This document shows, piece after piece, positions 33,828-63,739 of a DNA stretch of 64,000 nt. The DNA comes from Dehalococcoidia bacterium (GTDB lineage Bacteria; Chloroflexota; Dehalococcoidia; GIF9; AB-539-J10). Location: the NCBI GenBank assembly GCA_034414555.1, contig DAOUMA010000008.1:11039-75038 (forward strand). Direction: 5' to 3'. The first letter of the stretch is position 1. Each line of letters opens with the position of its first letter. The position numbers were made by a program, and so were the translations under genes. The notes beneath the pieces are model-generated. The model made no database searches and was not told the DNA's origin. It worked only from the letters and a program-made list of their open reading frames with translations.

Positions 33828-34109
33828 CTAACCCCCTTTCCCTTTCAATATTGCCTGATTTAATCCCCTTGTTAGCTGAGATTTGAGTCTGGCACCCTTA
33901 TTGCGATGAATAACCCCTTTACTTACCGCCTTATCTATACTGCTTACTGTCTTTAGCATCTCTTTTTGCGCTAGCTCCATATCCCCAGATGCAATAACCT
34001 TCTCCGTTTTACCAATAGCAGTCTTCATCCTACTTTTTACTGCGCTATTCCTTAACCTCCTTTTCTCCGCAACTCGAGCCGTTCTGGTAGCCATTTTACC
34101 TCTGGACAT
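33828..34109 (-). CDS. rpsT: 30S ribosomal protein S20
   Basis: ARVAEKRRLRNSAVKSRMKTAIGK ... KGVIHRNKGARLKSQL aligns with bacterial S20. The true start may be at MATRTAR. Its stop lies 4 nt before lexA and its start overlaps the rel stop. Confidence 0.75.
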   Translation of the reverse strand: MSRGKMATRTARVAEKRRLRNSAVKSRMKTAIGKTEKVIASGDMELAQKEMLKTVSSIDKAVSKGVIHRNKGARLKSQLTRGLNQAILKGKGG

Positions 34110-37695: not shown

Positions 37696-39639
<1,944 letters not shown>

Positions 39640-39650
39640 ATAGAACCGTG

Positions 39651-40253: not shown

Positions 40254-40405
40254 AGATTCACCACTATGTTATTGACACATATTATAATTATAAGTATCTA
40301 CTTTTATTTTTAGTGATAATGGTAATGTATCCTATACCATAAGGGGAAGTTTAACGAAGTGGAATTTATAAATGACTCTCAAGTTTTTAATAATTTATTC
40401 ACAGG
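40254..40405. other. AT-rich oriC-like region with DnaA-box-like 9-mers (TTATTCACA, TTATTGACA, TTATCACTA)
   Basis: AT-rich tract between nadD and the 3' end of dnaA. 9-mers have 1-2 mismatches to TTATCCACA. Confidence 0.4.
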
Positions 40406-41731
40406 TTATTGATAAAAATTATCAATTTTTTGTTTAATTTCATTAATCTGCCTGTTCAGCTTAGAATTAGCATTCAATTCACTAGTTATTTTTTTATAGC
40501 CATAGAGTATTGTGGCATGATTCCTCTTACCCAATACTTTGCTAATCTCGACGAAGGAGTAATTCCCCTCCTCTCGCAGAAGATATGCTGCAATTTGGCG
40601 CGCTAAAGAAGTCTCCTTATCCCTCTTTCTGCCTAGCAATTGGTCTAGCGGACAATTAAAATAATCGGCTACTGTTTGCACTATTAGTTTACCATCATCA
40701 ATGCTTTTATTAGGTGTTAGTAATTTGGTGATTATTTGTGGAGTTAAGCTAAGTCCGGTTAACTTGGTATAGGCATCGAGGTATGTTAGAGCGCCTTCAA
40801 GCTGGTAAACGTTATCCTGTATCTTCTGTGCGATAAATCGCAGCGTCTCTTCAATGATGGGGAGTCTCTTCTCTCTTGATTTAGCTTGCAGTATAGCTAA
40901 GCGTGTTTCAAAATCGAGGGGGTTAATTTGAGTAACAAGACCGCATTCCAGGTGTGACCTTAGCCTGCTGCTGATTAAGGACATCTCTTTAGGAGCGCGG
41001 TCAGCAGCGATCACGATCTGGCAATTATTATGGTAAAGCTCGTTGAAGGTGTGAAAGAAAAATTGTTGAGTCTGCTTTTTATTATTTAGCAGTTGAAAAT
41101 CATCAAAAAGTAATATATTTACCGGAGTGAATTTGCTTCGGAAACGGGCTACATCGTTTTGCTTGACTGCGAGCACAAATTCATTGGTGAATTGGTCGGC
41201 GGAGGAGTAAACCACGTTCAATCCCCTTTCTAGCGCAGCATGTCCGATAGCATGTAATAAGTGAGTCTTGCCCTGACCGGTGTTTCCGTGAATGATGAGT
41301 GGATTATAGACCAGCGATGGTTTCTCACTTACCTCTGTTGCGGCAGCATAAGCAAGGCGGTTACACTCACCCACCACAAAGCTGGTAAAAGTGTATTTCG
41401 GGTTAAATTGGTAGGTTTTTATCTTGGTGCTTATTCCTCCATCGCTCTGCAATGGCTTCGTGCTAGGTAGCGTTGGCTGCTGTACCACGAATTGGACCTC
41501 TAAGTTTTTCCCTAAGATAATAGTAAGGGTCTTCTTTATCAATGAATAAAAGCGTTTTGTAAGACACTCCGCGACGAAAGTATTGGGGACGCTGACGACG
41601 AAGACGTCGGTTTCATAATTCATGCCCGCGCTATCTCTAAGCCAGGTATCATAGTTTATTCTGTTAACCTGGAGTTGAAGCTCTCCTAAAGCTCTTGCCC
41701 AGGTCTCTTTTGCCGAAAAAGGTTCACTCAT
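40406..41731 (-). CDS. dnaA: Chromosomal replication initiator protein DnaA
   Basis: AAA+ Walker A IHGNTGQGKTHLLHAIG, sensor motifs and a C-terminal DnaA-box-binding domain at 441 aa. Confidence 0.9.
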   Translation of the reverse strand: MSEPFSAKETWARALGELQLQVNRINYDTWLRDSAGMNYETDVFVVSVPNTFVAECLTKRFYSLIKKTLTIILGKNLEVQFVVQQPTLPSTKPLQSDGGISTKIKTYQFNPKYTFTSFVVGECNRLAYAAATEVSEKPSLVYNPLIIHGNTGQGKTHLLHAIGHAALERGLNVVYSSADQFTNEFVLAVKQNDVARFRSKFTPVNILLFDDFQLLNNKKQTQQFFFHTFNELYHNNCQIVIAADRAPKEMSLISSRLRSHLECGLVTQINPLDFETRLAILQAKSREKRLPIIEETLRFIAQKIQDNVYQLEGALTYLDAYTKLTGLSLTPQIITKLLTPNKSIDDGKLIVQTVADYFNCPLDQLLGRKRDKETSLARQIAAYLLREEGNYSFVEISKVLGKRNHATILYGYKKITSELNANSKLNRQINEIKQKIDNFYQ

Positions 41732-49154: not shown

Positions 49155-50189
49155 CTAGAGCTGCCACACACTAACCAGCTGTTGGTAATCAATCAGTCCA
49201 TTTTCGGCTACGTTTTCGATCTCAATTCCAGCCTCAACGGCTGCTGCCACCGGGTTCAGCCCACCCAGTTGCACGACACCAATCCGATTCAGACCCACAG
49301 GAATCTGACAAAGTGGCTCGCTAGTATTGCCTACGGCGTAAACCCCATGGATGCCAGCCTCCTTGAGCAAGGCAATCTTCTCCTCCAAGATTCCCCTCGC
49401 CGGTGCTGGTATTGTACGGAAGACACCTAGTATCTTACCGCTGCCTGTCTTTGCAGCCTCGCTAACACTAGTCATCCTGGCACGAATAAATTGCTCGGAG
49501 GGATCGAGAGAGGTACCAGCATAATCGACTATGGCCACAAAGCGCCTTGGCTTTGAATTCCTAGCTTCAAGCAGGCCCCCGAACCTGTAGTCTGTAGGGA
49601 CACCAGCCTTCAGGAGTACTCCATTAATGACTATGCTACAAACAGTAGCCAAGCCAATTTTCCCACTGGGGATAACCACAGAACCAAGTTTTTCCCCCTC
49701 AGACGCTGTGGCCACCAACTCACTAACACAGATTCCTGCCTTGAATGCATCCTTCATAGCTGATAGTGCTGCGGTGAGCTTCTCCTTGTCAATAAGAGAG
49801 GTATTTATGGATAGCTGGCCAGTTCTTTTTTGAGGGTTGAAAGTGGTCTGGAAGGCTAACATCTCGAGCTTCTCGCGTATGAAACCGAGTTGTTCTGGGG
49901 CAAGTGCTTCCCTAACCTCCTCGAGTCCAGCCCTAGTGATCATTCTGCCATCCTGACCTACCGGCTGGGTATAACCACGCTCGTCCGCTATCCGAAGATG
50001 ATATCTAACTGCTCTTTCACTTAAAAAAATACCGCGGCGCTGAAGTTCCCGAGCGATGGTAATTGACCCTAGCGGTTCAGAAGACTCGCTCAATACTTTA
50101 AGAATGGACATTATCTTCCGTTCCGTCTCCGGACCAGCGCTTTGTATCATACGAACCTCTCTTGGCTCTCTTAGATAGACTGTAGCCAT
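49155..50189 (-). CDS. nrpR: NrpR-family nitrogen regulatory repressor (wHTH + NrpR regulatory domain)
   Basis: N-terminal winged helix (ILKVLSESSEPLGSITIARELQRRGI ... RAVRYHLR) plus a DUF128-like regulatory domain. Lies immediately beside glnA-glnB-amtB. An alternative start exists at MIQSAG. Confidence 0.6.
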   Translation of the reverse strand: MATVYLREPREVRMIQSAGPETERKIMSILKVLSESSEPLGSITIARELQRRGIFLSERAVRYHLRIADERGYTQPVGQDGRMITRAGLEEVREALAPEQLGFIREKLEMLAFQTTFNPQKRTGQLSINTSLIDKEKLTAALSAMKDAFKAGICVSELVATASEGEKLGSVVIPSGKIGLATVCSIVINGVLLKAGVPTDYRFGGLLEARNSKPRRFVAIVDYAGTSLDPSEQFIRARMTSVSEAAKTGSGKILGVFRTIPAPARGILEEKIALLKEAGIHGVYAVGNTSEPLCQIPVGLNRIGVVQLGGLNPVAAAVEAGIEIENVAENGLIDYQQLVSVWQL

Positions 50190-50228: not shown

Positions 50229-51572
50229 TTACAGCACTGGTAAGTACCTCTTGAGTTCGTAGTCGGTCACCTGAGTCCGATACTGGTCCCACTCAATCTT
50301 CTTATTCTTGATGAAAGCGTTAAAAACGTGGTCGCCGAGGGTTTTTCGCACCAGCTCACTCTTTTCCGTGAGCTGTATTGCCTCCAGAAGGCTGGCGGGC
50401 AATGTGCCTATGCCCAGACTCTTTCTTTTCTCCTCGCTCATGTGGTATACGTTTTCTTCCACCGGTTCCGGCGGTTCCAATCCTTCCTCAATCCCCGCCA
50501 GGCCGGCAGCCAGCATCACACTGAAGCAAAGGTAGGGGTTGCAGGCGGGGTCGGGAGAGCGAAGCTCAAACCTGGTCGCATTTTCAAAGCCTGGTTTGTA
50601 TTCGGGAACCCGGATAAGGTCAGAACGGTTCCGCGTTGCCCAGGAGAGATAGACCGGTGCCTCCCAACCGGGTACCAACCGCTTATATGAGTTTACCCAC
50701 TGGCTGGTGACCGCAGTAATCTCGGGGGCATATTTCAGGAGCCCAGCAACAAAGCCCAGTGCTACCTTGGAGAGATAATGCTTGCCCTTCTTGTCAAAGA
50801 AGGCATTGGTATCACCCTTGAATAGGGACTGGTGGACATGCATACCGCTACCATTAATACCGAAGACCGGCTTGGGCATAAAGGTGGCATAGACTTCACG
50901 CTTTAGCGCCATTTCCTTGACCACTATCCGATAGGTCATCACATTGTCAGCCATGCTCAGGGCATCAGTATAGTGCATGTCTATCTCGTGCTGGCTGGTA
51001 GCGACCTCGTGGTGGGACTTGTCAATAGCAATGCCCATCTCCTCCAGGGCGAGCACCGTTTCCCGTCTCAGGTCAATAGCCGCATCATGAGGGTCCATGT
51101 CGAAATACCCCCCGTGGTCCAGCGGCTCGGTACAATTTGAATCCTTGAAATAGAAATACTCAAGCTCCGGGCCAACATAATAGACATAACCCATATCTGC
51201 CGCTCGTTCCAGGTTCTTTTTCAAGACAAACCGTGGGTCACCTTCAAAAGGCTCGCCGCCCGGTTTAAGTATGTCACAGAACACTCTAGCCACCGCCGCG
51301 TGCTCCTTGGGTCGCCACGGAAGAAGCCGGAAGGTATCAGGGTCAGGCAGAGCTACCATATCGCTTTCATCAATACGGGCAAAGCCCTCGATTGAGGAGC
51401 CATCAAAGCCCACGCCGTCCTCGAGAGCACCTTCCAGCTCCTCTACAGTGATGGCAAAACTCTTGAGCATGCCCAGGATGTCGGTGAACCATAGCTTGAT
51501 GAACTTGACATCGTGCTGCTCAGCCATCTTGAGGACATATTGCTTACTTTCCTCCCTACTTTTGGTTTGCAT
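50229..51572 (-). CDS. glnA: Glutamine synthetase, type I
   Basis: GSI beta-grasp N-domain and catalytic domain motifs (..GINGSGMHVHQSL.., ..NRSDLIRVP..) at 447 aa. Confidence 0.9.
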   Translation of the reverse strand: MQTKSREESKQYVLKMAEQHDVKFIKLWFTDILGMLKSFAITVEELEGALEDGVGFDGSSIEGFARIDESDMVALPDPDTFRLLPWRPKEHAAVARVFCDILKPGGEPFEGDPRFVLKKNLERAADMGYVYYVGPELEYFYFKDSNCTEPLDHGGYFDMDPHDAAIDLRRETVLALEEMGIAIDKSHHEVATSQHEIDMHYTDALSMADNVMTYRIVVKEMALKREVYATFMPKPVFGINGSGMHVHQSLFKGDTNAFFDKKGKHYLSKVALGFVAGLLKYAPEITAVTSQWVNSYKRLVPGWEAPVYLSWATRNRSDLIRVPEYKPGFENATRFELRSPDPACNPYLCFSVMLAAGLAGIEEGLEPPEPVEENVYHMSEEKRKSLGIGTLPASLLEAIQLTEKSELVRKTLGDHVFNAFIKNKKIEWDQYRTQVTDYELKRYLPVL

Positions 51573-51590
51573 ATTTATAACCCTCCTTTT

Positions 51591-51929
51591 TTATATTGCA
51601 TTCTCGCCTTCCTCACCGGTTCTAACACGCACCGCATCCTCGACCGGGAGGACAAATATCTTGCCATCTCCCATCTCGCCAGTCCTTGCAGCACTGGTGA
51701 TAGCATTCAGTGTTTTGGGCACATCATCGTCAAGCACGATAAGCTCAACCTTAAGCTTGGGTAAAAAATCCACTTTATATTCTCCGACGCGCCATTGTAA
51801 GACGAGACCTCCTTCCCGGCCATGACCGCTGACCTCACTTACGGTCATGCCATAGTAACCACTATTTTGAAGAGCGGCTCTCACCGCATCCAGCTTTTCT
51901 TCCCTGATGATGGCTTCTATCTTCTTCAC
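51591..51929 (-). CDS. glnB: Nitrogen regulatory protein P-II
   Basis: MKKIEAIIREEKLDAVRAAL ... TVSEVSGHGREGG T-loop region at 112 aa. Confidence 0.9.
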   Translation of the reverse strand: MKKIEAIIREEKLDAVRAALQNSGYYGMTVSEVSGHGREGGLVLQWRVGEYKVDFLPKLKVELIVLDDDVPKTLNAITSAARTGEMGDGKIFVLPVEDAVRVRTGEEGENAI

Positions 51930-53164
51930 CGCAACGTTCCTCCGTAAGCCCTTTCCCCATGTTGCGAGATGTCCAAGCCGACAATTTCTTCAGTGACACT
52001 GACCCTCAGCCCCATAACAACATCAACCAGTTTCCCCAGAACCCAGGTAGCGCCAAAGGCAAATGCCCAGACCGTACCTACTGCCACGAGTTGCTTTCCA
52101 AGCTGCATGGCGTTGCCGAAAATCAGCCCATTAGCACCAGCTGAATTTACCACAACACTGGCAAAAATACCAGTGGCCAGAGCACCCCAGGTGCCACCGA
52201 TACCATGACACGCCCAGACATCTAGAGACTCATCAACCCCCATCTTCCTCGCTCTGAAGAGCATAGCATAGTAGCAGGCCACTGCTGCCCCGATACCTAT
52301 CGGTATTCCCATCAGCGGCGACACAAAGCCGGCAGCTGGTGTAACCGCTGCCAGTCCAGCAATGGCTCCAGTGGCAATACCAAGGACAGTAGGACGCCGA
52401 TAAATCCAGCTAAGTACCATCCAGGTGACAGCTGCTGCCGCTGCTGATGTATTGGTAGCGACAAAGGCGCTGGATGCCAGCCCCCCGGAGGTGAGGGCGC
52501 TGCCGGCATTAAAGCCAAACCAGCCAAACCAGAGCAACCCGGCACCAAGCGCCACCATAGGAATATTACTTGGTTCCATTGGCTGCTTCTCAAGGAAGCC
52601 TTTGCGAGGACCAAGCAACCAGGCTAAAGCCAGCGCTGATACACCAGCATTTATGTGAACCACGATACCACCGGCGAAGTCGAGGACACCCAGTCTGGCT
52701 AGCCACCCACCGCTGCCCCACACCCAGTGGGCTACCGGGCAATAGACAAGGCTAAACCACAAGACAGAAAAGACCAGGAGGGCGCTGAATTTCATCCGCT
52801 CAACCACCGCCCCGGTAATCAGAACTACGGTGATAATGGCAAACATAGCCTGAAAAATCATATAAGCCAACTGGGGAACTGTCGTCGCATAGACCGGCGA
52901 AGGTTCTTGCCCCACGCCGTGGAGAAAAATAAAATTAAGCCCACCGATAATACCCCCTTTATCTGGACCGAAGCTCAGGCTATAACCGTATAAGACCCAG
53001 AGTAGACCCACCAATGCCATGATGGCAAAACTCATCATGATGGTAGAAAGGATATTCTTCCTTCGCACCATGCCGCCATAGAATAGAGCTACCCCTGGCG
53101 TCATCAACATAACCAGCGCTGATGATATCAACATCCAGGCAGTGTTACCTGTATCAATAGACAT
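51926..53164 (-). CDS. amtB: Ammonium transporter
   Basis: 11-TM Amt/MEP protein with twin-His and AGLLWFGWFGFNAGS signature. Confidence 0.9.
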   Translation of the reverse strand: MSIDTGNTAWMLISSALVMLMTPGVALFYGGMVRRKNILSTIMMSFAIMALVGLLWVLYGYSLSFGPDKGGIIGGLNFIFLHGVGQEPSPVYATTVPQLAYMIFQAMFAIITVVLITGAVVERMKFSALLVFSVLWFSLVYCPVAHWVWGSGGWLARLGVLDFAGGIVVHINAGVSALALAWLLGPRKGFLEKQPMEPSNIPMVALGAGLLWFGWFGFNAGSALTSGGLASSAFVATNTSAAAAAVTWMVLSWIYRRPTVLGIATGAIAGLAAVTPAAGFVSPLMGIPIGIGAAVACYYAMLFRARKMGVDESLDVWACHGIGGTWGALATGIFASVVVNSAGANGLIFGNAMQLGKQLVAVGTVWAFAFGATWVLGKLVDVVMGLRVSVTEEIVGLDISQHGERAYGGTLR

Positions 53165-53398: not shown

Positions 53399-54073
53399 TT
53401 AGACGTTTTTCTTGAATCTGTAGCCTACGTTTCTCACAGTGTCGATAAAAGAGTGACTTCTATCCTCGATCTTGCTCCTCAATCTCCTGATGTGCACATC
53501 TACAGTTCTGTCTCCACCGTAATAATCCCACCCCCAGACCTTAGCAAGCAGGGTCTCACGAGTGAAAACCTTTCCTTCGTTGCTTGCCAAGAACTTAAGT
53601 AGCTGATACTCCTTGAAAGTAAGCACTATTGGCTCGCCACCAAGTGACACCTCGTATTTGGCTGAATCTATAACCAGGCCGCCACACTTAATTATATCTT
53701 CGCTGCCTATGCTCCCTTTTTGCCTCAGAATTCGTTTTATCCTAGCTGTAATTTCATTTGCTTCCCAGGGTTTGACCACAAAATCATCTATGCTGGTGTT
53801 GGAATCGAGGCCATTGAGTTTCTCTCTGGAGACAAGGGCAATGATGGGTATGTGTCTTTCTTGCCTTATCCTTTGAGCTTGTTCCCATGTTTCTGAACCA
53901 ATCGTCGCTTCACCCATATCTAGCAACATCAGCTCCGGGGATTGCCCCGCAATTTGTTCAATCGCTTCATCATTATGGGGAGCAATTAGGCAATCAAAGC
54001 CCCTCTGAGCAAGTTCTGAACTCAGTTCCCTTGCCTGCCCGCTTTCATTGGCTATAATGAGTAGTTTGAACAA
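53399..54073 (-). CDS. OmpR-family response regulator (receiver + winged-helix) with atypical acidic pocket
   Basis: C-terminal trans_reg_C motifs (REYQLLKFLASNEGKVFTRETLLAKVWGWDYYGGDRTVDVHIRRLR). The receiver keeps the phospho-Asp (LLDMGE) and Lys (VVKPW), but the usual DD pair is N-E (IIANESG). No histidine kinase gene nearby. Confidence 0.7.
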   Translation of the reverse strand: MFKLLIIANESGQARELSSELAQRGFDCLIAPHNDEAIEQIAGQSPELMLLDMGEATIGSETWEQAQRIRQERHIPIIALVSREKLNGLDSNTSIDDFVVKPWEANEITARIKRILRQKGSIGSEDIIKCGGLVIDSAKYEVSLGGEPIVLTFKEYQLLKFLASNEGKVFTRETLLAKVWGWDYYGGDRTVDVHIRRLRSKIEDRSHSFIDTVRNVGYRFKKNV

Positions 54074-54089: not shown

Positions 54090-55790
54090 TTAGGAGTGGA
54101 TTATTTTGGTGGTTGCTGCTAAATATGGTTCAAGTTGCTCTTGCTCTGCCGGACTTAGTAAGCCATGCTCATAAGCTAGGTTGTCCAGCCATAGCTGGAC
54201 ATAGTCTTGGGTTGCCCAATGGCTCGGATCATCGTATTTAAACCCATACCGCTGTGAGCTACCCAGATTCTCCTCCAGTTCATTATCCATGTGATACCCT
54301 AGTTGATTTGTTAGAGATTCATTGAAACCGTGCTCTTCAGCCAGTGTTACAAGTCTATTGTGAATTCCAGCGCCATGTTGGGCTGCTTCCTTGGGTCGCC
54401 ATGCTATTTCCTCAGGAACACCAATAGCAAGTGCCAGAACACGGTGAATATATTTTCCTGTAGTGTCCTTAGCCGACCTCAGCTTGAGATGAGGGTCTAT
54501 GTCAAAAGCTACTCTAATCACTTGATGGTCTAGGTAAGGCACGCGGAGTTCAATGCCATAAGCCATGGTGATTTTGTCTTCCCGTTCTAGGGTTTCTTTG
54601 TAGAGTTGTTTGAGGTCATCCCACATACGAAATTCGAATTCATCATATCCATCCACTTCAACAATGCGACGATACCAAGGGTAGCCACCGAATAGCTCGT
54701 CAGCACCTTGACCTGTCAGCAAAACAATCTGGTTATCCTGATGAGCTAGCTCCACAGAGGCTATGATAGGAATGGCTACTTCTACTTGTCCCAGGCTGTG
54801 GTCTTCTGTAGAGGCAATCGCTTTGACGATAAAATCCAGCAGGGTCTGGTCATCAAGTTCGTTTATCCGGATAGGGATGTCGATTTGAGCAGCGGCCCGT
54901 TTGGCAAAATCTATATCGTCGGCATTTCTCATGCCAGCAGTGTAGCAAGTCATATTAGCGCCCAGATTCTCAGCAATTGTGGTTATTAAGGCACTATCCA
55001 CCCCGCCAGAGAAAATTACCCCCACCTGTTCCAAATCAGGAATGCGCTTTTGCACTGCCTCTTTCAAGGCTGTCTCATAGGTTTCGAGTGCTTCTCCGAA
55101 GTCATGAATAGCGGGTTCATTGGCACACAGAAAGTCTGGCGTTCGATGAGCCTTCTCAAGCCCGGTGAAGGACAAGCGCATAGCTTCGCCAGGAAGTAAA
55201 CGATGAACACCATTTCTTAGGCCAAGATTCCAAAGCGTTTTTTTCTCTGAGGCGAAGGCCACAAGCTTTTCATTTTCTCCCCAATATAGTTGTTTTACAC
55301 CAATAAGGTCTCGAGCGATGACGATTTCTTTGCCATCACTAACAGCTATAGCATAGACCCCATCTAGCTGGGACGCTATATTATTAAAAGCCTCCATCAA
55401 GTCACCTTTGTAATGTTGGGAAAGTAGATGAACTAGGACTTCACTATCTGTCTGGGTAGCAAAGTGATAATCTTTTTCCAGAGAACTTCGCAAAGCCTTG
55501 TAGTTATAAATCTCGCCATTATGCAATAAGACAATTTCTCCATTGTTGCTGACTAAAGGTTGCCACCCCTCAGAGCCGCCCACTATTGCCAGCCTGGTAT
55601 GACCCATAGCTAGATTGCCTCGCAGGGAATCCCAATCTAGCTCTGCTATTGTTTTAGCGTAACAAACTTTGCCTGATGCCGTTATTCCAGCTCCATCTGG
55701 GCCGCGATGCTCGATGCTTTCCAGCATGTCCCGTAGCAATGGGATTACATTTTCACCTTTCTTGCTTAATAGTCCTGCAATGCCACACAC
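54090..55790 (-). CDS. asnB: Asparagine synthase (glutamine-hydrolysing)
   Basis: Class II GATase N-terminus CGIAGL immediately after a GTG start (AAGGAGG RBS 8 nt upstream). SGGVDSALI PP-loop. Confidence 0.85.
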   Translation of the reverse strand: MCGIAGLLSKKGENVIPLLRDMLESIEHRGPDGAGITASGKVCYAKTIAELDWDSLRGNLAMGHTRLAIVGGSEGWQPLVSNNGEIVLLHNGEIYNYKALRSSLEKDYHFATQTDSEVLVHLLSQHYKGDLMEAFNNIASQLDGVYAIAVSDGKEIVIARDLIGVKQLYWGENEKLVAFASEKKTLWNLGLRNGVHRLLPGEAMRLSFTGLEKAHRTPDFLCANEPAIHDFGEALETYETALKEAVQKRIPDLEQVGVIFSGGVDSALITTIAENLGANMTCYTAGMRNADDIDFAKRAAAQIDIPIRINELDDQTLLDFIVKAIASTEDHSLGQVEVAIPIIASVELAHQDNQIVLLTGQGADELFGGYPWYRRIVEVDGYDEFEFRMWDDLKQLYKETLEREDKITMAYGIELRVPYLDHQVIRVAFDIDPHLKLRSAKDTTGKYIHRVLALAIGVPEEIAWRPKEAAQHGAGIHNRLVTLAEEHGFNESLTNQLGYHMDNELEENLGSSQRYGFKYDDPSHWATQDYVQLWLDNLAYEHGLLSPAEQEQLEPYLAATTKIIHS

Positions 55791-55803
55791 GACAATAACC
55801 TCC

Positions 55804-56562
55804 TTAATAAGCGTAAAGTCGGCCATAAGGGCGAAGGTAAAGGGGGAAAAGTTTAATAAATTTGTGCTTCAGTATCTCCTCGGCATTATAGCCGAAGTGA
55901 TAAGCAAATTCACCTACTAGCTCCTTTAGAACCACATAATCGTTTTCATCCAGTTCAGCGACACCTACTTCCTTGCCTAGCTGAAATTCCTGAACTTCCC
56001 TCCTCATATAGATAGCGCCACCATGCATGCCAGTGCCGATGAAATTTGCCCTATGTCGCTCCCCTTCTTTGAGGTTTAGCCCCAGGAGAATCAGGATTCC
56101 GCCTGCCATATATTCGCCCAAGAAGTCCTGGGCAGTGCCGCCGATGACGACTGCTGGCTTCCTATCCTGATATTCCTTCATATGAATCCCGGCTCGGTAG
56201 CCGACATCATCCCGAATAAAGAGCTTACCTCCCCGAGCTGATAAACCGATGATATCGCCAGCATGACCATGGATGATGATTTCACCACTGTTCATGGTGT
56301 TGCCGCAGCCATCCTGAGCATTGCCGCGCACAATAATCCTTGGCCCGTCCATGAACGCTCCAAGGTCATTGCCGGGCGTGCCAAAGATTTCGATTTCCAC
56401 CGATGTATTCAGGTCCGTGCCAATATACCTCTGACCATAAACGTTATAAAGCTCAATTCGGTGAGCACCTTTTTTGACCACATCCCTAAGTCTGGCATTG
56501 AGCTCCTGATAGAAAATGCCACTGGCATCGATCTTCACTGACGAATTAGCCTGCCCTTTCAT
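55804..56562 (-). CDS. gltB3: Glutamate synthase GXGXG-domain subunit (archaeal-type GltB domain 3)
   Basis: Repeated GxGxG-rich beta-helix motifs (IIVRGNAQDGCGNTMNSGEIIIHGHAGDIIG ...). Confidence 0.7.
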   Translation of the reverse strand: MKGQANSSVKIDASGIFYQELNARLRDVVKKGAHRIELYNVYGQRYIGTDLNTSVEIEIFGTPGNDLGAFMDGPRIIVRGNAQDGCGNTMNSGEIIIHGHAGDIIGLSARGGKLFIRDDVGYRAGIHMKEYQDRKPAVVIGGTAQDFLGEYMAGGILILLGLNLKEGERHRANFIGTGMHGGAIYMRREVQEFQLGKEVGVAELDENDYVVLKELVGEFAYHFGYNAEEILKHKFIKLFPLYLRPYGRLYAY

Positions 56563-56563
56563 A

Positions 56564-58069
56564 TTAGTTGCCCACCATCCTTACTCCGAGGATTTCGAGT
56601 TCAGTATCAGTCAACCCAATACCTCTCAAGTGGAGGCGATTTCCCCGCAGGCTCTCAATTGCGTTTACACCGAGACCGCCAAGTATATCCTTAAGCTCCA
56701 GGCTCCAACCGCGAAGGAGGTTAGCCAATCGCCTTGAACCAATGTCGGGGTTAACCCGCTTGGTCAGGAAAAGGTCAGTGGTGCAGATGCCCCAGGCACA
56801 CTTACCGGTATGGCATTGCTGACACACGGTGCACCCCAGGGCAATGAGAGCCGCCGTCCCAATGTAAACTGCATCAGCACCAAGGGCAATCGCCTTAGCT
56901 ACATCACCGCTATTTCTTATCCCCCCTGAAACGACAATCGAAGCCTGGTTACGGATTTTTTCTTGTCTTAAGCGGGTATCGACTGAGGCTAGAGCCATCT
57001 CAATAGGAATGCCCACGTTGTCACGGATTATTTTTGGTGCTGCTCCAGTAGCCCCCCGTAGCCCATCGAGAACTATGATGTCGGCTCCTGCCCGCACCAT
57101 ACCGCTGGCGATAGCTGCCGAGTTGTGGACGGCAGCTATCTTCACTGCCACTGGCTTGGTATAGTCTGTTGCCTCTTTAAGGGCATAAACAAGTTGAGCC
57201 AAGTCCTCGATGGAGTAAATATCGTGCTGCGGTGCTGGGGACAGGGCGTCCGTTCCCAGGGGAATCATTCGGGTCATAGATACCTCAGCGCTTACCTTTT
57301 CTCCGGGAAGATGCCCGCCAATGCCAGGCTTAGCCCCTTGACCAATCTTAATCTCAATTACGCGGGCGACATCTAGATAATCAGGATGGACCCCAAAACG
57401 CCCTGATGCTACTTGGACGACAGTATTATTGCCATACTTATATAGCTTAGGGTGGAGCCCGCCTTCCCCGGTATTCCAGAGGGTTCCCACTTCAGTCGCT
57501 GCCCGAGCTAGAGATTCGTGCACATTGAGGCTTACTGCCCCATAGGACATGGCGGCAAACATGACCGGAACTTCAAGTTTCACCTGCGGCGCCAGCTCCG
57601 TTTTCAGATTGATGTTATCCCCATCAAGCTCAACCCGGTCAGGTTTTCGTCCCAGATAGGTGGTAAGCTCCATCGGCTCGCGCAGCGGGTCGATAGATGG
57701 GTTGGTCACCTGGCTGGCATTAAGAACCAGATGGTCCCAGTAAATACGCTGACTCTTATCATCGCCCATTCCGGTGAGGAGCATGCCGCCGGTCTCGGCC
57801 TGCTTGATTATGTCTTCAATAACTTCAGGACGCCAGTTATAGTTCTCACGGTAGTCCAGCGGGTTTTTTCTAATAGTCAAGGCTTGGGTCGGGCAAAAAA
57901 CAACACAACGATGGCAGCCAACACAGTTCTCTTCCCGACTCCTTACCTCATCATCCTCAGCATCATAGTAATGAGCGTCAAAGGTGCACTGGTTGACACA
58001 TACCTGGCACTGGATGCACCGCTCCGGGTCTCGTTCTATTAAGAATTTGGCGGGAAGATAGGTCTTCAT
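56564..58069 (-). CDS. gltB2: Glutamate synthase FMN-binding subunit (archaeal-type GltB domain 2) with N-terminal 2x[4Fe-4S] ferredoxin module
   Basis: CIQCQVCVNQC and CVGCHRCVVFCP cluster motifs. TIM-barrel FMN site region (VSGGIRNSGDVAKAIALGADAV). Confidence 0.8.
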   Translation of the reverse strand: MKTYLPAKFLIERDPERCIQCQVCVNQCTFDAHYYDAEDDEVRSREENCVGCHRCVVFCPTQALTIRKNPLDYRENYNWRPEVIEDIIKQAETGGMLLTGMGDDKSQRIYWDHLVLNASQVTNPSIDPLREPMELTTYLGRKPDRVELDGDNINLKTELAPQVKLEVPVMFAAMSYGAVSLNVHESLARAATEVGTLWNTGEGGLHPKLYKYGNNTVVQVASGRFGVHPDYLDVARVIEIKIGQGAKPGIGGHLPGEKVSAEVSMTRMIPLGTDALSPAPQHDIYSIEDLAQLVYALKEATDYTKPVAVKIAAVHNSAAIASGMVRAGADIIVLDGLRGATGAAPKIIRDNVGIPIEMALASVDTRLRQEKIRNQASIVVSGGIRNSGDVAKAIALGADAVYIGTAALIALGCTVCQQCHTGKCAWGICTTDLFLTKRVNPDIGSRRLANLLRGWSLELKDILGGLGVNAIESLRGNRLHLRGIGLTDTELEILGVRMVGN

Positions 58070-58079
58070 TGTCTTTTCC

Positions 58080-58847
58080 CTAAATTCGTATCGGTATTCC
58101 TTTTTGGGCTAAATATCTCTTTGTCTCGGCAATGGAATAGGTGCCATAATGAAAAATACTGGCTGCCAGCACTGCATCCGCCTTTCCGCTAACTAGAGCT
58201 TGATAAAGGTCCTCCAGAGTTCCTGCACCACCACTGGCAATGACTGGCACGGTTACCGCCTCGGAGACAGCACGGGTTAGTTCAATGTCATAACCCGCCC
58301 GATGACCATCGGCATCAATGCTGGTAAGCAAAATTTCCCCAGCCCCCAATGCTGCTACCTGCCTCGCCCAAACGAGAGCATCAATCGCGGTTGGTCTTTG
58401 ACCACTGTAGCTGTAGATTTCCCATCGTGGTTCCTTACTGCTCTCTACCCTCTTGGCGTCTATAGAGACCACGATGCATTGACTGCCAAATTTATCAGCC
58501 GCTTCTCTAATCAGGGGTGGCTTGAGCACGGCGGCAGTGTTTATTGACACCTTGTCTGCTCCTGCCATCAAAATGCGCCGGATATCACTGATACTGCGCA
58601 GCCCGCCACCCACAGTTAGGGGTATAAACACCTCTTTGGAGATACGCTCAATGATATCAACCATGGTGTCACGCTCCTCAGGAGTCGCAGTTATGTCCAG
58701 AAAGACCAGTTCGTCGGCACCCTCCTTATAGTAGAAGCTAGCCAGCTCTACCGGGTCGCCAGCGTCGCGCAACTCCACAAAGCTTTTCCCCTTTACTACC
58801 CGTCCATTTTTCACATCAAGACAGGGAATAATCCGTTTAGTTAACAT
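58080..58847 (-). CDS. hisF: Imidazole glycerol phosphate synthase cyclase subunit
   Basis: [20 protein letters not shown] ... SIDA ... ASGGAG are canonical HisF motifs. Start placed at MLTKR. Confidence 0.85.
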
Positions 58848-59988
58848 CCGGTACCCCCTCCCTGGCAGCAACCATCTCCTTCGGTTGGAGTGGCCTACCG
58901 AGTCTTCCCACGATAGGCTCGCCTCCCATTGGAATCCATGCCTTATCCAGGTCAGGACAAATCAGACGAATAGCCGACTCCTCAGACGAAAGATATAGCA
59001 TGTCGCCCTTTATCCCAGCAGTAAGCGGGCGCAGTCTGATGCGGTCGGTAAGCCCGATCATCTCGCCACGATGGGCAATAATTACTGTGAACGGTCCATT
59101 TAAGAGCAAGCTGCTATATACCTGACGAAGGGTTCGTAATAGCTTCTGCTCCTCAAGAGGTCGGCGCTCAATATCAGTCCAGAAGGGTGGCGCTAGGATA
59201 TGAGCTACAATCTCGATAGGAAGCCCGTGCTTCCGCATTAGTAGGTCAATAGCGTAAGCCACTACTTCAGTGTCGGTCTGCATAGTGCAGTAGTAGCCGA
59301 ACTGCTCCAGGTAACGCTGATTTATTCCGTAGGACGAAATCTCGCCGTTGTGAACTACGGTCCAGTCTAGAATGCAAAATGGGTGAGCTCCACCCCACCA
59401 CCCGGGAGTATTGGTTGGGAATCTGCCATGAGCTGTCCACAGGTAACCTTCATAATGCTCCAGGCAGAAGTAGTCAGCTATCTCCTCAGGATAGCCCACA
59501 CCTTTGAACACACCCATATCCTTGCCACTGGAAAAGACAAAGGCATCTTCAAGCTTGGTATTCACCTCCATCACCCTGTCCACCACATAGTCGTCCGCTG
59601 ATTGCTCTGCAGGCTTATGCTGACCTATCTCAAGAAAGTAGCGCCATATTAGTGGCGGCTTCACAATCCTTGGCGTCGGTCGCGTTGGTACCTCTTCGTC
59701 ATAAACAAGGTCGAACTTGTCCTTAAGGAATGCCTCGGTCTCCCGTTGTCCCTCTCGGCTGAGATACATTATGTGGAAGGCGTAGAGGTCAGCATATTTG
59801 GGGTACAATCCGTAGATGGCAAATCCTCCACCCAAGCCATTGCCGCGAACATGCATATTGGCAATAGCCCTAATGACACCTTCCCCGGGGAACCTTCTTC
59901 CCGAGGTATCCATTACTCCAAATAGGGAGCAGGCATTTATCATCTTATCGTCATTGTAAGGGTTATTTGTTCGGTTAATCTCTTTCAT
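58837..59988 (-). CDS. gltB1: Class II glutamine amidotransferase subunit (archaeal-type GltB domain 1)
   Basis: CSLFGV nucleophile Cys follows a short propeptide ([20 protein letters not shown]). Ntn-type GATase body. Confidence 0.65.
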
Positions 59989-60010
59989 CTTGTATCTCCT
60001 GGAACAAAAT

Positions 60011-61360
60011 CTACTCTCCTAAGACCAATTCCTCGGGCTCCTCACGGAGGATTGTCGGAGAAAGAAAACCCGAGGTTGGCATTCCTAACCGCGCTCGCCA
60101 CATTTCTTCGGGCAGAGAGGCCATACTAAAATCTTCAGCAACCAGGGCTTGCTTGAAACGTTCAACCTCTACCCGGTCTTTCATCAAACTGAAGACGACG
60201 CCCGATTTCTCAATGTCACCAGCAAAGACCATGCCAACTACGAGTCCGTCTTTCAGCACGACCTTCTTATACATATGGTCATACCTATTGCTGATTACCT
60301 CATAACTGTCATCAGGCGGGTTGACCATTCCGGCAGAGGCAACAGCTAGGCCGAAGTATTTCAGCGAATTCATCGCCGTGCCACCGGAATATTCGGTGGG
60401 CACGCCAGCCATATTGAATCCAGCGACTCTTCCTCCTATATAAGCGTTAGGCCAGATAGGGGTCAGCCGATTCTCGCCATAAATAAAGTCATAAGCTTCA
60501 GCCACATCTCCGCAGGCGAAAACTTCGGGGTTAGATGTAGCCATGCGGCGGTCAACGACAATGCCGCGATTGACTTTTATCCCGGTACCAATCGCAAGGT
60601 CAAGGCGCGGCCGGACGCCGATAGCCACTATTATCAGTTCACAGGGTATAGGCCGGGTGTCATCGAGGTTGACACCGGTGGCTTCGCCGGGTAAATAGCT
60701 GCCGATCTTGCCTACTGTATGTCCAGTTATTATTTTAACGCCAGCCTCCGTTAGAATTTTCTCCTCTAGAGTCGATCCCTCTTCATCAAGAATAGTGTTC
60801 AAAATCCGTTCTTTCATCTCGACAATGGTAGCTTCAATCCCTCGTTTTACGAGTGCTTCGGTCACACCCACGCCAATTAATCCGCCGCCAATGACAATAG
60901 CCCGCACCTTTATCCCGTAGTGACTCAGAAACTCGTCGATCGCCTTAGCGTCGTCGAGTTTAGTAAAGGTAAAGACTCCTTTCAACCCGATACCCTCTAT
61001 CTCGGGAACAATAGGTAAGCCGCCGGTAGCTAGTAGTAGCCTTTCCCATCTGATTTTCTCTCCCGACTCTAGCTCAACAATATGCTTATCAATATCAAGG
61101 TGCTGTGCCTTCTTATCCAGGAAAGTGCGGATATTGTTCTTCTCATAGAAGTCAGCCGGTCGAAATAGCATCTTCTCCAAAGGACATCTGTTGGCTAGGT
61201 ACTCTGAGATAAGCGGCCGTGAATAGGCAGGGTAGGGTTCGTCGGAGATTATGGTGATTTCTCCTGCTTTATCCATCTCACGTATGGCTTCAGCAGCCGC
61301 AATGCCCCCGGCTGAGTTACCAATAATCAGGTATTTTGATTTCACTACACTCTTTGCCAT
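60011..61360 (-). CDS. FAD-dependent pyridine nucleotide-disulfide oxidoreductase (NADH oxidase / ferredoxin reductase-like)
   Basis: N-terminal YLIIGNSAGGIAAAEAIRE FAD-binding GxGxxG. Second Rossmann motif (AIVIGGGLIGVGVTEAL). Confidence 0.7.
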   Translation of the reverse strand: MAKSVVKSKYLIIGNSAGGIAAAEAIREMDKAGEITIISDEPYPAYSRPLISEYLANRCPLEKMLFRPADFYEKNNIRTFLDKKAQHLDIDKHIVELESGEKIRWERLLLATGGLPIVPEIEGIGLKGVFTFTKLDDAKAIDEFLSHYGIKVRAIVIGGGLIGVGVTEALVKRGIEATIVEMKERILNTILDEEGSTLEEKILTEAGVKIITGHTVGKIGSYLPGEATGVNLDDTRPIPCELIIVAIGVRPRLDLAIGTGIKVNRGIVVDRRMATSNPEVFACGDVAEAYDFIYGENRLTPIWPNAYIGGRVAGFNMAGVPTEYSGGTAMNSLKYFGLAVASAGMVNPPDDSYEVISNRYDHMYKKVVLKDGLVVGMVFAGDIEKSGVVFSLMKDRVEVERFKQALVAEDFSMASLPEEMWRARLGMPTSGFLSPTILREEPEELVLGE

Positions 61361-61388
61361 TCTGTCTATACCCTATCCCTTTGTAGTT

Positions 61389-62003
61389 TTAACTTCGCTC
61401 CATAACGAGTTTTATGAAATTGCCGTACATTCTTAGGCCAAGTTCCCCGCTCTTTTCCGGGTGAAACTGGGTTGCTATCACATTGCCCCTCGCTATCACA
61501 CTGCATAATCGAATGCCATATTCGGTCTCACCGGCTACTAGCGATTTATCATCTGGCTCGACATAATAGCTGTGGACGAAGTAGAAGTTCGCTTCGTCCG
61601 GTATGCCATCAAATATCGGGTGCGAGCCTATCTGCTTTACCTGATTCCACCCCATGTGAGGGATTTTCAGCCCTGCAGGAAGCTTTCTTACTTGCCCGGG
61701 AATGACCCCAAGACACTCGTGCCAGCCGCCTTCCTCAGTGCCACCAAATAGAATCTGTAAGCCGATACAAACGCCCAAGAAGGGGCGACCATCACCAATA
61801 AACTGACGAATCGGGGCGACCATACCCAGTATCTCAAGATTTTTCATTGTTTCACCTGCAGCACCAACGCCGGGCAGAACAACCGCTTGGGCATTAAGCA
61901 AATCTCTCGGGCGGCTCGTTACCTTTGGCTGGCAGCCTAGCCTCGTGAGAGCATTAGCCACACTGCGCAGATTGCCCGCACCATAGTCAATTATTGCGAT
62001 CAT
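61389..62003 (-). CDS. hisH: Imidazole glycerol phosphate synthase glutaminase subunit
   Basis: MIAIIDYGAGNLRSV ... GVCIGLQIL catalytic Cys ... FHPEKS. Confidence 0.85.
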   Translation of the reverse strand: MIAIIDYGAGNLRSVANALTRLGCQPKVTSRPRDLLNAQAVVLPGVGAAGETMKNLEILGMVAPIRQFIGDGRPFLGVCIGLQILFGGTEEGGWHECLGVIPGQVRKLPAGLKIPHMGWNQVKQIGSHPIFDGIPDEANFYFVHSYYVEPDDKSLVAGETEYGIRLCSVIARGNVIATQFHPEKSGELGLRMYGNFIKLVMERS

Positions 62004-62293
62004 TTCGCCTCAACCCTGCTCGCTTCTGGTTCCAACGGAGAACTTACTGCCGACCCCTCAGGAAGCTCGTCAAACTCTTCAGGCGTGTACTCACGCATTT
62101 CCCCGCTGGCTGAAGCCGCCTCATCTACCCGTTCCACCGTGAGCTTGAATGGCACCGGGCCCATGAAACTACAGCTTTTAGCCTGTACTGCATCCCGTAT
62201 TATGTTGGCCATCCGTTCGGCTTCCACCCTGGGGAAACAGTGGCTAACGGCAGGCGGAACCTCCAGTGTCACTACAAACAGTCGCCTTTCCAT
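62000..62293 (-). CDS. Hypothetical acidic small protein
   Basis: 97 aa with an acidic C-terminal tail. Translationally coupled (4-nt overlap) to hisH. No family recognised. Confidence 0.3.
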   Translation of the reverse strand: MERRLFVVTLEVPPAVSHCFPRVEAERMANIIRDAVQAKSCSFMGPVPFKLTVERVDEAASASGEMREYTPEEFDELPEGSAVSSPLEPEASRVEAK

Positions 62294-62320
62294 GTTTCTA
62301 CCTCCTTCCCTGAGCTGATT

Positions 62321-62791
62321 TTAATTAATTGTCGCATGATTAACGGTGTCATCTTGGGCCTCTGCGTATACCAGTGCCTCGTTAGGGCAGTTCGTGACGC
62401 ATACTGGCATGTCCCTTCCTTCGCATAAGTCGCATTTAACAATCTTTCCCCGGTCTGTTTCCTGCCTTATAGCACCAAATGGACAAGCTAATATGCAGGT
62501 CCAGCAGCCGATGCACTTGTCCATATCCACACGGACGATGCCGCTGTCAGGGTCCCTCCAGAGGGCTCCAGTAAGGCATGCATACACGCAGACAGGGTCA
62601 GCACAATGGCGACATTGCACCGGAAAGCAAACAGGCTTCCTCTCTTCGACCCACAAAGATGGTAATGGTTCGGGCGATTCCCTCTTGAACGCCTTCACCA
62701 AGTCCTTCGATCGCGAGTGAGCCGCCTGACAATATACCTCACAGAGGTGACAGCCGATGCAAACCTGTTCGTTAATGTAAATCTTCTTCAT
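62321..62791 (-). CDS. 4Fe-4S ferredoxin-type multi-cluster protein
   Basis: CIGCHLCEVYC, CRHCADPVCVYAC, CIGCWTCILACP and CDLCEGRDMPVCVTNCP are multiple CxxCxxCxxxC(P) motifs. Confidence 0.7.
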   Translation of the reverse strand: MKKIYINEQVCIGCHLCEVYCQAAHSRSKDLVKAFKRESPEPLPSLWVEERKPVCFPVQCRHCADPVCVYACLTGALWRDPDSGIVRVDMDKCIGCWTCILACPFGAIRQETDRGKIVKCDLCEGRDMPVCVTNCPNEALVYAEAQDDTVNHATIN

Positions 62792-63079
62792 CTATTAAAA
62801 CCCTTCATTAGCGGTAGGCGGCAACCGTCTACCGTTTACCATCTTACCACAGTATATTTACTATGTCAATAGAATAGCCTATCCCCAGAAATTTCGCAAT
62901 TTTCCCGGCAAAAGTTGTTAACTTGGGGCTCCCTCTAGTTTGGCCGATATCGAATGGGTTACCCGTCACCGCATAGAAGACAGTTTCCTAGCACTTCGTG
63001 CAACAGTTGATTGTTTCGTTACCTGATTGCCCGAAAATAGCGGATTGTTCAATTTGGCAAATACGCTATAATTAGACCT

Positions 63080-63739
63080 GTGAGCTACATTGCATCCTGG
63101 AGTGGCGGTAAAGACAGTTGTTTCGCCGTGCATGAGGCAATGGATAAAGGATACGAGATTTCTCACCTGGTGAACTTCATTTCCCGGGAGTTCCATAGAG
63201 TAAGTTTTCATGGCACAGAAGCCAGGCTGATTCAACTGCAAAGTCAAGCTGTGGGAATCCCTCTTCTACAGAGGGAGACTACCTGGGATGGGTATGAGCA
63301 GGAGTTCAAGGAGGCAGTGCGAAGTCTAATTCCTGGCGGTGTAGAGGGGATGGTTTTCGGGGACATATATCTTCAAGAGCACAAGGACTGGGTAGAAAGG
63401 GTTTGCGGTGATTTGGGTATTCAGGCGATTGAGCCACTCTGGGGTAAGAGTACGGAAGAGATATTGTCTAGCTTTATCGATGACGGGTTTGAAGCAGTTA
63501 TCGTCAGTGCTAAATCTGCTCTAATCGATGAATGTTGGATTGGTGGACGAGTAGATAAGGCATTCATGGAGTACTTAAAGAAGAGAGGCATTGACATCTG
63601 CGGTGAAAACGGTGAATATCACACTCTGGTGACCGGCGGTCCTATCTTTAATAGACGAATACAACTGATTGAGAGCAGGACTATCAGCCGGGATAATTAC
63701 TGGTTCCTGGATACCACCAGGTATGAGCTTAGTTGTTGA
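63080..63739 (+). CDS. Dph6/MJ0570-like PP-loop ATP pyrophosphatase family protein
   Basis: SWSGGKDS PP-loop at the N-terminus and a COG2102-like body. Confidence 0.6.
   Translation: MSYIASWSGGKDSCFAVHEAMDKGYEISHLVNFISREFHRVSFHGTEARLIQLQSQAVGIPLLQRETTWDGYEQEFKEAVRSLIPGGVEGMVFGDIYLQEHKDWVERVCGDLGIQAIEPLWGKSTEEILSSFIDDGFEAVIVSAKSALIDECWIGGRVDKAFMEYLKKRGIDICGENGEYHTLVTGGPIFNRRIQLIESRTISRDNYWFLDTTRYELSC

Follow-up and report, generated by a model that had tools for sequence, protein, structure and literature searches.

The closest described systems to the locus reported here come from several organisms. In Clostridium thermocellum, the genes Clo1313_2032-2036 have been treated as one gogat (glutamate synthase; GOGAT) unit. 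They are co-expressed and are needed for high-affinity ammonium assimilation, and deletion of gogat increased glutamate dehydrogenase (GDH) activity 160-fold under ammonium limitation (PMC9888227, PMC4676874). In the cryo-EM structure of AorABC, the four clusters of AorA form the link between the catalytic subunit and the FAD of AorC, the site of NAD+ reduction (PMC10413684). The nitrogen repressor NrpR of Dehalococcoides was acquired from archaea by lateral gene transfer (PMC1852104). A 2021 review gives the pieces of archaeal-type GOGAT merely as open reading frames (ORFs), and our literature search on archaeal-type glutamate synthase and its D. mccartyi counterpart genes found nothing useful. 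Here we analyze a stretch of 64,000 nucleotides from a Dehalococcoidia bacterium (GCA_034414555.1, contig DAOUMA010000008.1, positions 11,039 to 75,038; hereafter the window). A gene cluster on its minus strand encodes a split GOGAT (gltB1, gltB2 and gltB3) together with a polyferredoxin subunit (Fd), an FAD-containing oxidoreductase (FADox), a small protein of 97 residues (p97), and the products of hisH, hisF and asnB.

We found that this cluster is a common arrangement in Dehalococcoidia that is built on a known kind of five-gene GOGAT. Its variant features are the interleaved genes for imidazole glycerol phosphate (IGP) synthase (hisH and hisF), p97, and a strain-specific asnB. As an explanation of the whole we favor, with moderate confidence, a nitrogen-controlled operon that encodes a five-subunit GOGAT, into which the IGP synthase genes were inserted and which is controlled through a palindrome bound by NrpR.

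The five-gene core was conserved well beyond the window. With a profile made from diverse GltB1 sequences we collected 80 genomic loci and mapped the proteins of the window on them. Of the 58 loci with enough upstream sequence, 56 had FADox immediately before gltB1 and Fd close by. Loci with this pair came from Dehalococcoidia, Bathyarchaeia, Archaeoglobus, an Asgard metagenome-assembled genome, Armatimonadota, Bacillota and Anaerolineae. The Bacillota loci L080 and L081 have the order of the window, Fd-FADox-gltB1-gltB2-gltB3. The order in Anaerolineae is gltB2-Fd-FADox-gltB1-gltB3; that is, the pair sits inside the enzyme genes. An initial annotation of the window had called a three-polypeptide GOGAT an archaeal trait. 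It is not only archaeal, because it also occurs in Bacillota, Armatimonadota, Anaerolineae and, apparently, C. thermocellum. The same annotation had suggested a phylogeny against archaeal homologues; in a neighbor-joining tree of GltB1 and GltB2, the closest relatives outside the Chloroflexi were indeed from Bathyarchaeia.

We examined the three Glt proteins individually. GltB1 matched the GATase_2, GATase_6 and GATase_7 families, with a weak score to the GATase_2 model, and has thousands of close relatives that are annotated as Dehalococcoidia or Chloroflexi. It has a presequence of 19 residues ahead of Cys20. In an alignment of 14 sequences (29-86% identity), Cys20 was conserved in 90% or more and N214-G215 in all. 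We assume that the presequence would be removed to expose the catalytic cysteine. GltB2 matched the large chains of GltB in the PDB at 6.5e-65, and the ligands of a C-x5-C-x4-C cluster can be read in its motif GCTVCQQCHTGKC. We also found natural fusions (P0124, P0188, P0220, P0231, P0252 and P0155) that carry the GltB1 glutaminase together with either the GXGXG domain (668-898 aa) or a portion of the PF01645 domain. As judged from their sequences, these are architectures intermediate between split and fused GOGAT. Because such fusions exist, we take the three Glt pieces to be parts of one enzyme.

Based on the sequences and on analogy to described enzymes, we infer that the Glt pieces, Fd and FADox together would form a five-subunit glutamate synthase. 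In the proposed reaction, GltB1 would hydrolyze glutamine and pass ammonia to GltB2, which would convert 2-oxoglutarate to 2-iminoglutarate and reduce this to glutamate at its FMN. GltB3 would be a structural GXGXG subunit. A different possibility is that the trio is not a GOGAT at all and is instead a related three-subunit enzyme, for example N-methylglutamate synthase (MgsABC/GlxBCD) or another GOGAT-like amidotransferase. N-methylglutamate synthase has an identical three-piece architecture, the name GlxB was met in our searches, and the weak GATase_2 score of GltB1 would fit an enzyme that is not a GOGAT. In contrast, the neighbors of the cluster are glnA, glnB, amtB and nrpR, and no gmaS- or mgd-type (mgdABCD) genes were found in the window or in the related loci examined. 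The extra Fe-S domains of GltB2 and a dedicated reductase pair would be superfluous for a redox-neutral transfer of a methylated amine. In addition, the distant relatives of GltB1 (~30% identity) are a separate group, and the apparently equivalent cluster of C. thermocellum acts genetically as a GOGAT. We consider it very improbable that the trio is something other than a GOGAT.

A protein of 531-552 aa with a PF01645 domain only recurs directly upstream of the cluster in other loci (L084:3144-7480, L086:6402-7997 and L079:5904-7532). It is preceded by a PPDK_N protein in L084 and adjoins p97-hisH-hisF in L086.

The Fd/FADox pair is homologous to the AorA/AorC module. The best match of FADox in the PDB was AorC (8c0z_E, 4.6e-51), over residues 9-408 of 449. 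Among NCBIfam models, FADox scored best with PadH, reaching 290 of the 475 bits required by the cut-off; PadH is the NADH-linked subunit of phenylglyoxylate dehydrogenase. FADox contains the motifs GxSxxG and YSRPLIS, the latter of ferredoxin-reductase type, and GGGxxG followed by an acidic residue (E). In Rossmann folds, GGGxxG with an acidic residue usually goes with NADH, and this motif suggests NADH as the donor to FADox. Fd matched 7qv7_B (1.3e-22), 9mqx_E (2.2e-20) and AorA (8c0z_C, 8.8e-20), and the polyferredoxins WorS and HycB are among its relatives. Its four [4Fe-4S] motifs span C11-C21, C60-C72, C93-C103 and C120-C135.

Based on this homology and the conserved gene order, we infer that Fd and FADox are the reductase of the split GOGAT. 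Electrons from NAD(P)H, probably NADH, would enter at the FAD of the AorC-like FADox. They would then pass through the four [4Fe-4S] clusters of the AorA-like Fd to the two [4Fe-4S] clusters in the N-terminal domain of GltB2, and from this ferredoxin domain through the Fe-S cluster of the synthase domain to FMN. The pair had already been named as the probable electron donor in the initial annotation. The synteny across two domains of life and the homology to AorA/AorC speak for this; a dependence on NAD(P)H is hypothetical. The annotation's statement that a GltD-type subunit is absent also held. That is, we found no small subunit of this type (Fer4_20 plus Pyr_redox, beside a fused GltB) when we searched the window's ORFs of 150 aa or more.

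All nine ORFs of the cluster were confirmed on the minus strand in the order originally annotated, and profile searches assigned their families (Table 1; L001 and L082 are related loci). Two of the start codons differ from those annotated. The start of hisF had been placed at TTG 58871. ATG 58847, which has a Shine-Dalgarno sequence, is more likely, and the same start is called in L001 and L082. The start of asnB had been placed at ATG 55826. This is not the start because class-II amidotransferases need an N-terminal cysteine, which is provided by GTG 55790: this codon lies behind AGGAGG, and GTG-TGT gives the N-terminus Met-Cys-Gly.

The junctions are tight or overlapping, as had been noted; every one is an overlap or a gap of at most 28 nt. 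From the 5' end, there are 27 nt between Fd and p97, an ATGA overlap between p97 and hisH, 28 nt between hisH and FADox, and 22 nt between FADox and gltB1. These are followed by an 11-nt overlap of gltB1 with hisF, 10 nt between hisF and gltB2, 1 nt between gltB2 and gltB3, and 13 nt, with AGGAGG within, between gltB3 and asnB. Transcription of the cluster as one unit, also proposed earlier, is plausible given these junctions and the top-scoring promoter-like site of the region, which is found upstream of Fd. This site (TTGACA-17-TAAGAT, 10 of 12 matches) had the highest score between 49000 and 63300 and lies ~50 nt upstream of Fd; the number of promoter-like sites in that interval was not above chance. 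The arrangement of -35 and -10 boxes upstream of Fd is conserved in most Dehalococcoidia loci. A module of glnA, glnB, amtB and nrpR had been described 0.9 kb from the cluster. Its genes are present; the stretch before it is not empty and contains a gene for a response regulator (RR), located 16 nt from asnB and probably part of the same transcript as asnB and the genes upstream. Thus, a single nitrogen-controlled operon that runs from Fd to asnB and extends to the RR gene (62791 to 53399) is plausible from the arrangement of the genes.

Table 1. Features of the GOGAT cluster and its flanking nitrogen genes, in window coordinates.
Feature	Coordinates	Strand	Details
Promoter-like site, sigma-70-type	62841..62869	minus	TTGACA 62869-62864, 17-nt spacer, TG-extended TAAGAT 62846-62841
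Palindromic operator, candidate	62819..62834	.	minus-strand sequence CGGTAGACGGTTGCCG; 1 mismatch to CGGYAA-N4-TTRCCG
Fd, polyferredoxin subunit, AorA/WorS/HycB-like	62321..62791	minus	156 aa, 16 Cys, four [4Fe-4S] motifs, Fer4_11
p97, small acidic-tailed protein, 97 aa	62000..62293	minus	no Pfam/NCBIfam family
hisH, glutaminase subunit of IGP synthase	61389..62003	minus	TIGR01855 220.6 bits, cut-off 105.4
FADox, FAD/NAD(P)H oxidoreductase, AorC/PadH-like ferredoxin-reductase type, 449 aa	60011..61360	minus	Pyr_redox_2 174 bits and Rubredoxin_C
gltB1, class-II (Ntn) glutaminase subunit of split GOGAT	58837..59988	minus	GATase_2
hisF, cyclase subunit of IGP synthase	58080..58847	minus	TIGR00735 384.4 bits, cut-off 294.55
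gltB2, FMN/Fe-S synthase subunit	56564..58069	minus	N-terminal 2x[4Fe-4S] domain (Fer4 families) and PF01645 455 bits
gltB3, GXGXG subunit	55804..56562	minus	PF01493 111.6 bits
asnB, glutamine-hydrolyzing asparagine synthase	54090..55790	minus	TIGR01536 320.7 bits, cut-off 267.1
RR, OmpR-family, GlnR-like, atypical receiver	53399..54073	minus	Trans_reg_C 99 bits
amtB, ammonium transporter	51926..53164	minus	L082 homologue with PF00909; synteny conserved
glnB/glnK, PII protein	51591..51929	minus	L082 homologue with PF00543
glnA, glutamine synthetase	50229..51572	minus	L082 homologue with PF03951 and PF00120
nrpR, archaeal-type nitrogen repressor	49155..50189	minus	PF01995 258.8 bits and HTH_12 69.5 bits

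A palindrome, CGGYAA-N4-TTRCCG, begins 7 nt past the -10 box and extends to a 28-bp form, GGTATACGGCAA-N4-TTGCCGTATACC. Its 14-bp core occurred 36 times in the 1.21 Mb of loci, compared to ~4.6 occurrences expected. Between 32 and 33 of the 36 cores were within 150 bp upstream of Fd, and none were upstream of amtB or glnA. The palindrome was matched at 10 or more of 12 positions in 41 of 43 Fd-upstream regions from Dehalococcoidia. It was also found in Bathyarchaeia (L058, L061, L063 and L066), where it lies behind a TATA-like box. In methanogens, NrpR represses nif and glnA through the operator GGAA-N6-TTCC. The palindrome and this canonical operator share the outer GG/CC and the inner AA/TT of a 14-bp palindrome. 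Based on this likeness, the palindrome is probably an operator for NrpR. Transcription would start at the sigma-70-type promoter upstream of Fd, and the palindrome, which overlies the predicted start, would most likely be bound by the NrpR that is encoded at the end of the cluster.

The RR is a second candidate regulator. Homologues follow gltB3 in most Dehalococcoidia loci. Its receiver is atypical: Asn-Glu is in place of the usual acidic pair, the Response_reg score was 30.0 bits against a cut-off of 30.2, and there was a weak match to GlnR_1st. In these sequence features it resembles the orphan GlnR-type nitrogen regulators of Actinobacteria.

The CGGYAA palindrome was absent from the two Archaeoglobus loci (L076 and L077) ~70-100 nt upstream of Fd. 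L076 has another palindrome, ATGCATTAAA-N5-TTTAATGCAT, after a TATA-like box, and L077 also shows a different one; these are possibly lineage-specific operators.

Several points weigh against the explanation that we favor. A weak terminator-like hairpin overlaps the stop codon of asnB, and there may be internal promoters inside the cluster from Fd to asnB. The canonical NrpR operator is absent from the cluster; its one match in the window, at 32821, is at chance level. The palindrome could be bound by the RR or another factor, or could be a hairpin in the 5' RNA. C·A mismatches between positions 3 and 12 of the palindrome in L003 and L048 speak against the strict base-pair covariation expected of an RNA hairpin, and are not decisive. 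A riboswitch or other known RNA was rejected, since no Rfam family reached its gathering score anywhere in the window. Our search for fusions found neither FADox nor Fd fused to any Glt piece. Two loci, L065 (Archaeoglobaceae) and L067 (Methanosarcinales), the sole such loci, have gltB1-gltB2-gltB3 without Fd and FADox, and the pair is therefore not obligatory for this type of split GOGAT. Lastly, neither NADH- nor NADPH-GOGAT activity was detectable in lysates of C. thermocellum, and the authors favor reduced ferredoxin as the donor (PMC9888227, PMC4676874). These negative assays are the main evidence against NAD(P)H as the donor.

Alternatively, free reduced ferredoxin may drive the split GOGAT by feeding either Fd or the ferredoxin domain of GltB2, and FADox may not be the physiological point of entry. 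FADox might then vent or balance electrons to NAD+, or might confurcate or bifurcate with ferredoxin. Such a donor would account for the failure to measure NAD(P)H-linked activity in C. thermocellum and for the two archaeal loci that have the three Glt genes only. The shift in products upon deletion of gogat (more H2) also fits an enzyme that consumes ferredoxin, and polyferredoxins of the family of Fd can couple to a bifurcating unit, BfuABC (PMC12318220). On the other hand, the retention of FADox beside gltB1 in nearly all loci from two domains would be surprising if it were a dispensable accessory. Among solved structures, FADox is closest to AorC, an FAD subunit docked on a polyferredoxin that simply reduces NAD+ and is not bifurcating. 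Moreover, the failed lysate assays are merely negative evidence, obtained with an oxygen-sensitive enzyme of several subunits. Weighing these points, we think that free ferredoxin is unlikely to be the donor, and we prefer entry of electrons through FADox and Fd.

The hisH and hisF genes are bona fide IGP synthase genes, judging from their intact catalytic motifs. HisH has the triad motifs GVCIGLQ and HPE, and HisF has CLDV and SIDAKR (equivalents of Asp11 and Asp130). HisF passed TIGR00735 and scored below the cut-off for WbuZ. The slot of hisH follows Fd, and hisF has a different one, following gltB1. In all loci in which both slots could be read, the two genes were either both present (30 loci) or both absent (23 loci); none of the loci had only one. 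In the tree of GltB1 and GltB2, the outgroups and the basal Dehalococcoidia lacked hisH and hisF, one clade had both, and at least six sub-lineages within it had lost both. A single gain followed by six or more losses of both genes would account for this pattern; a neighbor-joining tree is only indicative of such counts. One loss appears to have left a scar. L010 has an ORF of 36 codons between gltB1 and gltB2 (L010:11137-11247), the first 18 of which are the 5' end of hisF (MLTKRVIPCLDVRNGRVV...); on this sequence it is the remnant of a deletion, that is, of a secondary loss of hisF. Conversely, L086 has hisH and hisF adjacent to each other (72% and 80% identity), preceded by a p97 homologue and followed by nrpR, pdxT, purL and purQ, and it has no GOGAT core. 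Retention of these orthologues without the GOGAT genes suggests a housekeeping role. The window itself contains no other his biosynthesis genes; only hisS is present.

These results bear on a possible functional integration of HisH and HisF with GOGAT, either in one complex or by exchange of ammonia or glutamate. Two internal positions with translational coupling, and the fact that the genes are always gained or lost together, could be taken as signs of such integration. In contrast, HisH and HisF each require the other as a partner, and this is enough to explain their concordance. The ancestral GOGAT operons had neither gene, and such operons arose again through the losses; p97-hisH-hisF persists in L086 without any GOGAT gene, and the scores of both proteins are those of ordinary HisH and HisF equivalogs. 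Physical coupling was rejected on the grounds that the modules separate in both directions, and we give functional integration almost no credence. Because hisH and hisF are separable from GOGAT in both directions, the interleaving reflects shared regulation or the history of the locus and not an enzymatic dependency. In the explanation that we favor, hisH, hisF and p97 were inserted into the operon in an ancestor of a Dehalococcoidia subclade, and the products of hisH, hisF and asnB would be independent enzymes with glutamine as their common substrate, and therefore with common regulation.

p97 belongs to a real, narrowly distributed family. It has ~60 homologues, all from Chloroflexi metagenomes, and it is directly upstream of hisH in L082, L087 and L086. 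In the window it has an AAGGAGG Shine-Dalgarno sequence, and its ATGA overlap with hisH points to translational coupling. Searches for its function gave no Pfam or NCBIfam family; an AF2 model (35 sequences) had a pLDDT of 65, and Foldseek against the PDB found nothing below E = 0.5. In other loci a different ORF of ~122 aa (MSYNWGPHYIVPSE...NGQYE.LGLMHVFV...VEVTVEN) occupies the slot of p97, between Fd and hisH or FADox (L008:7657-8025; also L003, L010, L014, L017, L023, L035, L042, L050 and L079), and persists where hisH was lost. In L015, L016 and L052 it has another place within the cluster. This ORF matched no Pfam family and has no sequence resemblance to p97.

We found that asnB is a strain-specific insertion and not a stable member of the cluster. 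Both asnB and the RR gene are absent in relatives at 95% DNA identity (L082 and L083). Compared to L082, homology from Fd to gltB3 stops exactly at the start of asnB, and the segment of asnB and RR is missing in L082. No other locus among the 85 in this comparison had asnB at the position it has in the window. It was apparently added very recently in this strain. The locus as a whole is a mosaic produced by recombination. DNA identity to L082 is 95% for the GOGAT genes (55794-63053), 78% for amtB-glnB-glnA (50229-53143) and 92% for nrpR, and in L082 glnA is separated from nrpR by trkH/trkA.

The locus has repeatedly recruited genes for glutamine amidotransferases. Several loci have a different asnB paralogue after the RR gene. 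After glnA, L084 and L085 have glutamine-dependent nadE, carA (apparently split), pdxT, purF and pyrG (L084:15657-21140); glutaminase subunits are present there without their synthase partners, that is, neither carB nor pdxS is adjacent. L018 has pdxT between FADox and gltB1, 57% identical to the copy in L084; after hisH, this is the second class-I glutaminase gene seen inserted among GOGAT genes. Altogether, 17 of 32 long loci of Dehalococcoidia type had at least one extra glutamine-amidotransferase gene. The initial annotation had remarked that three different glutamine amidotransferases (HisH, GltB1 and AsnB) are encoded together in the window. These assignments are correct, and they are one instance of a tendency of the whole locus.

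A broader notion joins these findings, and we offer it as possible though somewhat doubtful. The unit, its palindromic operator and NrpR would have moved together between Bathyarchaeia and Dehalococcoidia, and the core promoter alone would have been swapped (a TATA box for -35 and -10 boxes, or the reverse). With the AorA/AorC-like pair as its reductase, the split GOGAT would be a five-subunit Fe-S flavoenzyme that is driven by NADH or coupled to both ferredoxin and NADH. In Dehalococcoidia, the NrpR-controlled locus would collect genes by their shared use of glutamine and not by pathway.

The surroundings of the cluster contain several other genes. A PF01902 gene (diphthamide-synthase-like ATP pyrophosphatase; 63080-63739, plus strand) is divergent from the operon promoter, and L001 and L082 have the same neighbor. 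gyrB (plus strand) and dnaA (minus strand) are located at 37717-41731, ~10 kb from the cluster, and the window is therefore probably near the replication origin. Nearby are hisS (36340-37590), relA/spoT (34096-36255), lexA (33182-33823) and a gene for a DinB-type polymerase (30963-32141). The lowest GC content of the window, 0.40-0.43 compared to ~0.47 elsewhere, was between 10000 and 14000. This segment contains a gene for a protein with an HNH-endonuclease domain (12019-12993) and an ORF without a family (10990-11550), and it may be a foreign insert.

Our results do not overturn the current understanding of these systems. They give two testable leads, the AorA/AorC-like reductase and an operator conserved across two domains. 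Many strict anaerobes, including Dehalococcoidia, Bathyarchaeia, Archaeoglobi and biofuel clostridia, use the split GOGAT to assimilate ammonium, and the homology to AorA/AorC gives a specific hypothesis for the electron donor of this enzyme that bears on models of redox balance in the engineering of C. thermocellum. The conserved operator is a handle on nitrogen regulation in Dehalococcoidia, for which almost no regulatory sites are known, and it illustrates how a regulatory site can be conserved in both bacteria and archaea. The pattern of hisH and hisF, with two insertion sites, joint gain and loss and one deletion scar, is a clean natural experiment in the evolution of operons.

We compared the locus to the known systems. 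Going by the gene descriptions in the published work, the gogat cluster of C. thermocellum appears to be of the same kind as the core of the window. Like the window, it has a class-II amidotransferase, a 'Fd-dependent glutamate synthase' and a 4Fe-4S protein, and it lies next to glnA. For subunits 2032 and 2033, the identities are those that we presume from their annotation. Unlike the window, the C. thermocellum cluster has no hisH, hisF, p97 or asnB inside, and it is under an ANTAR-type regulator, whereas the window has NrpR and the OmpR-like RR. Compared to the canonical enzymes, GltB/GltD NADPH-GOGAT and the Fd-GOGAT of plants and cyanobacteria, the split GOGAT has the same modules (Ntn glutaminase, FMN/Fe-S synthase and GXGXG) and the same predicted chemistry. 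In contrast to them, it has each module on a polypeptide of its own, no separate unit corresponds to the central domain of GltB, and GltB2 has an extra N-terminal 2x[4Fe-4S] domain; in contrast to NADPH-GOGAT, the window has no GltD-type subunit.

The pair of Fd and FADox is like AorA and AorC of AorABC (PDB 8C0Z): AorA also has four [4Fe-4S] motifs, and AorC has two dinucleotide folds for FAD and NAD and a C-terminal domain. The two systems differ in that the partner here is a GOGAT and not a tungsten enzyme, and in that electrons would be expected to flow from NAD(P)H to the enzyme. Compared to the NrpR regulon of methanogens, the spacing of the half-sites differs (GGYAA-N4-TTRCC), and the palindrome is only upstream of Fd. 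As in methanogens, an NrpR with PF01995 and a winged helix is encoded in the cluster, and a 14-bp palindrome lies over the predicted transcription start of a nitrogen operon.

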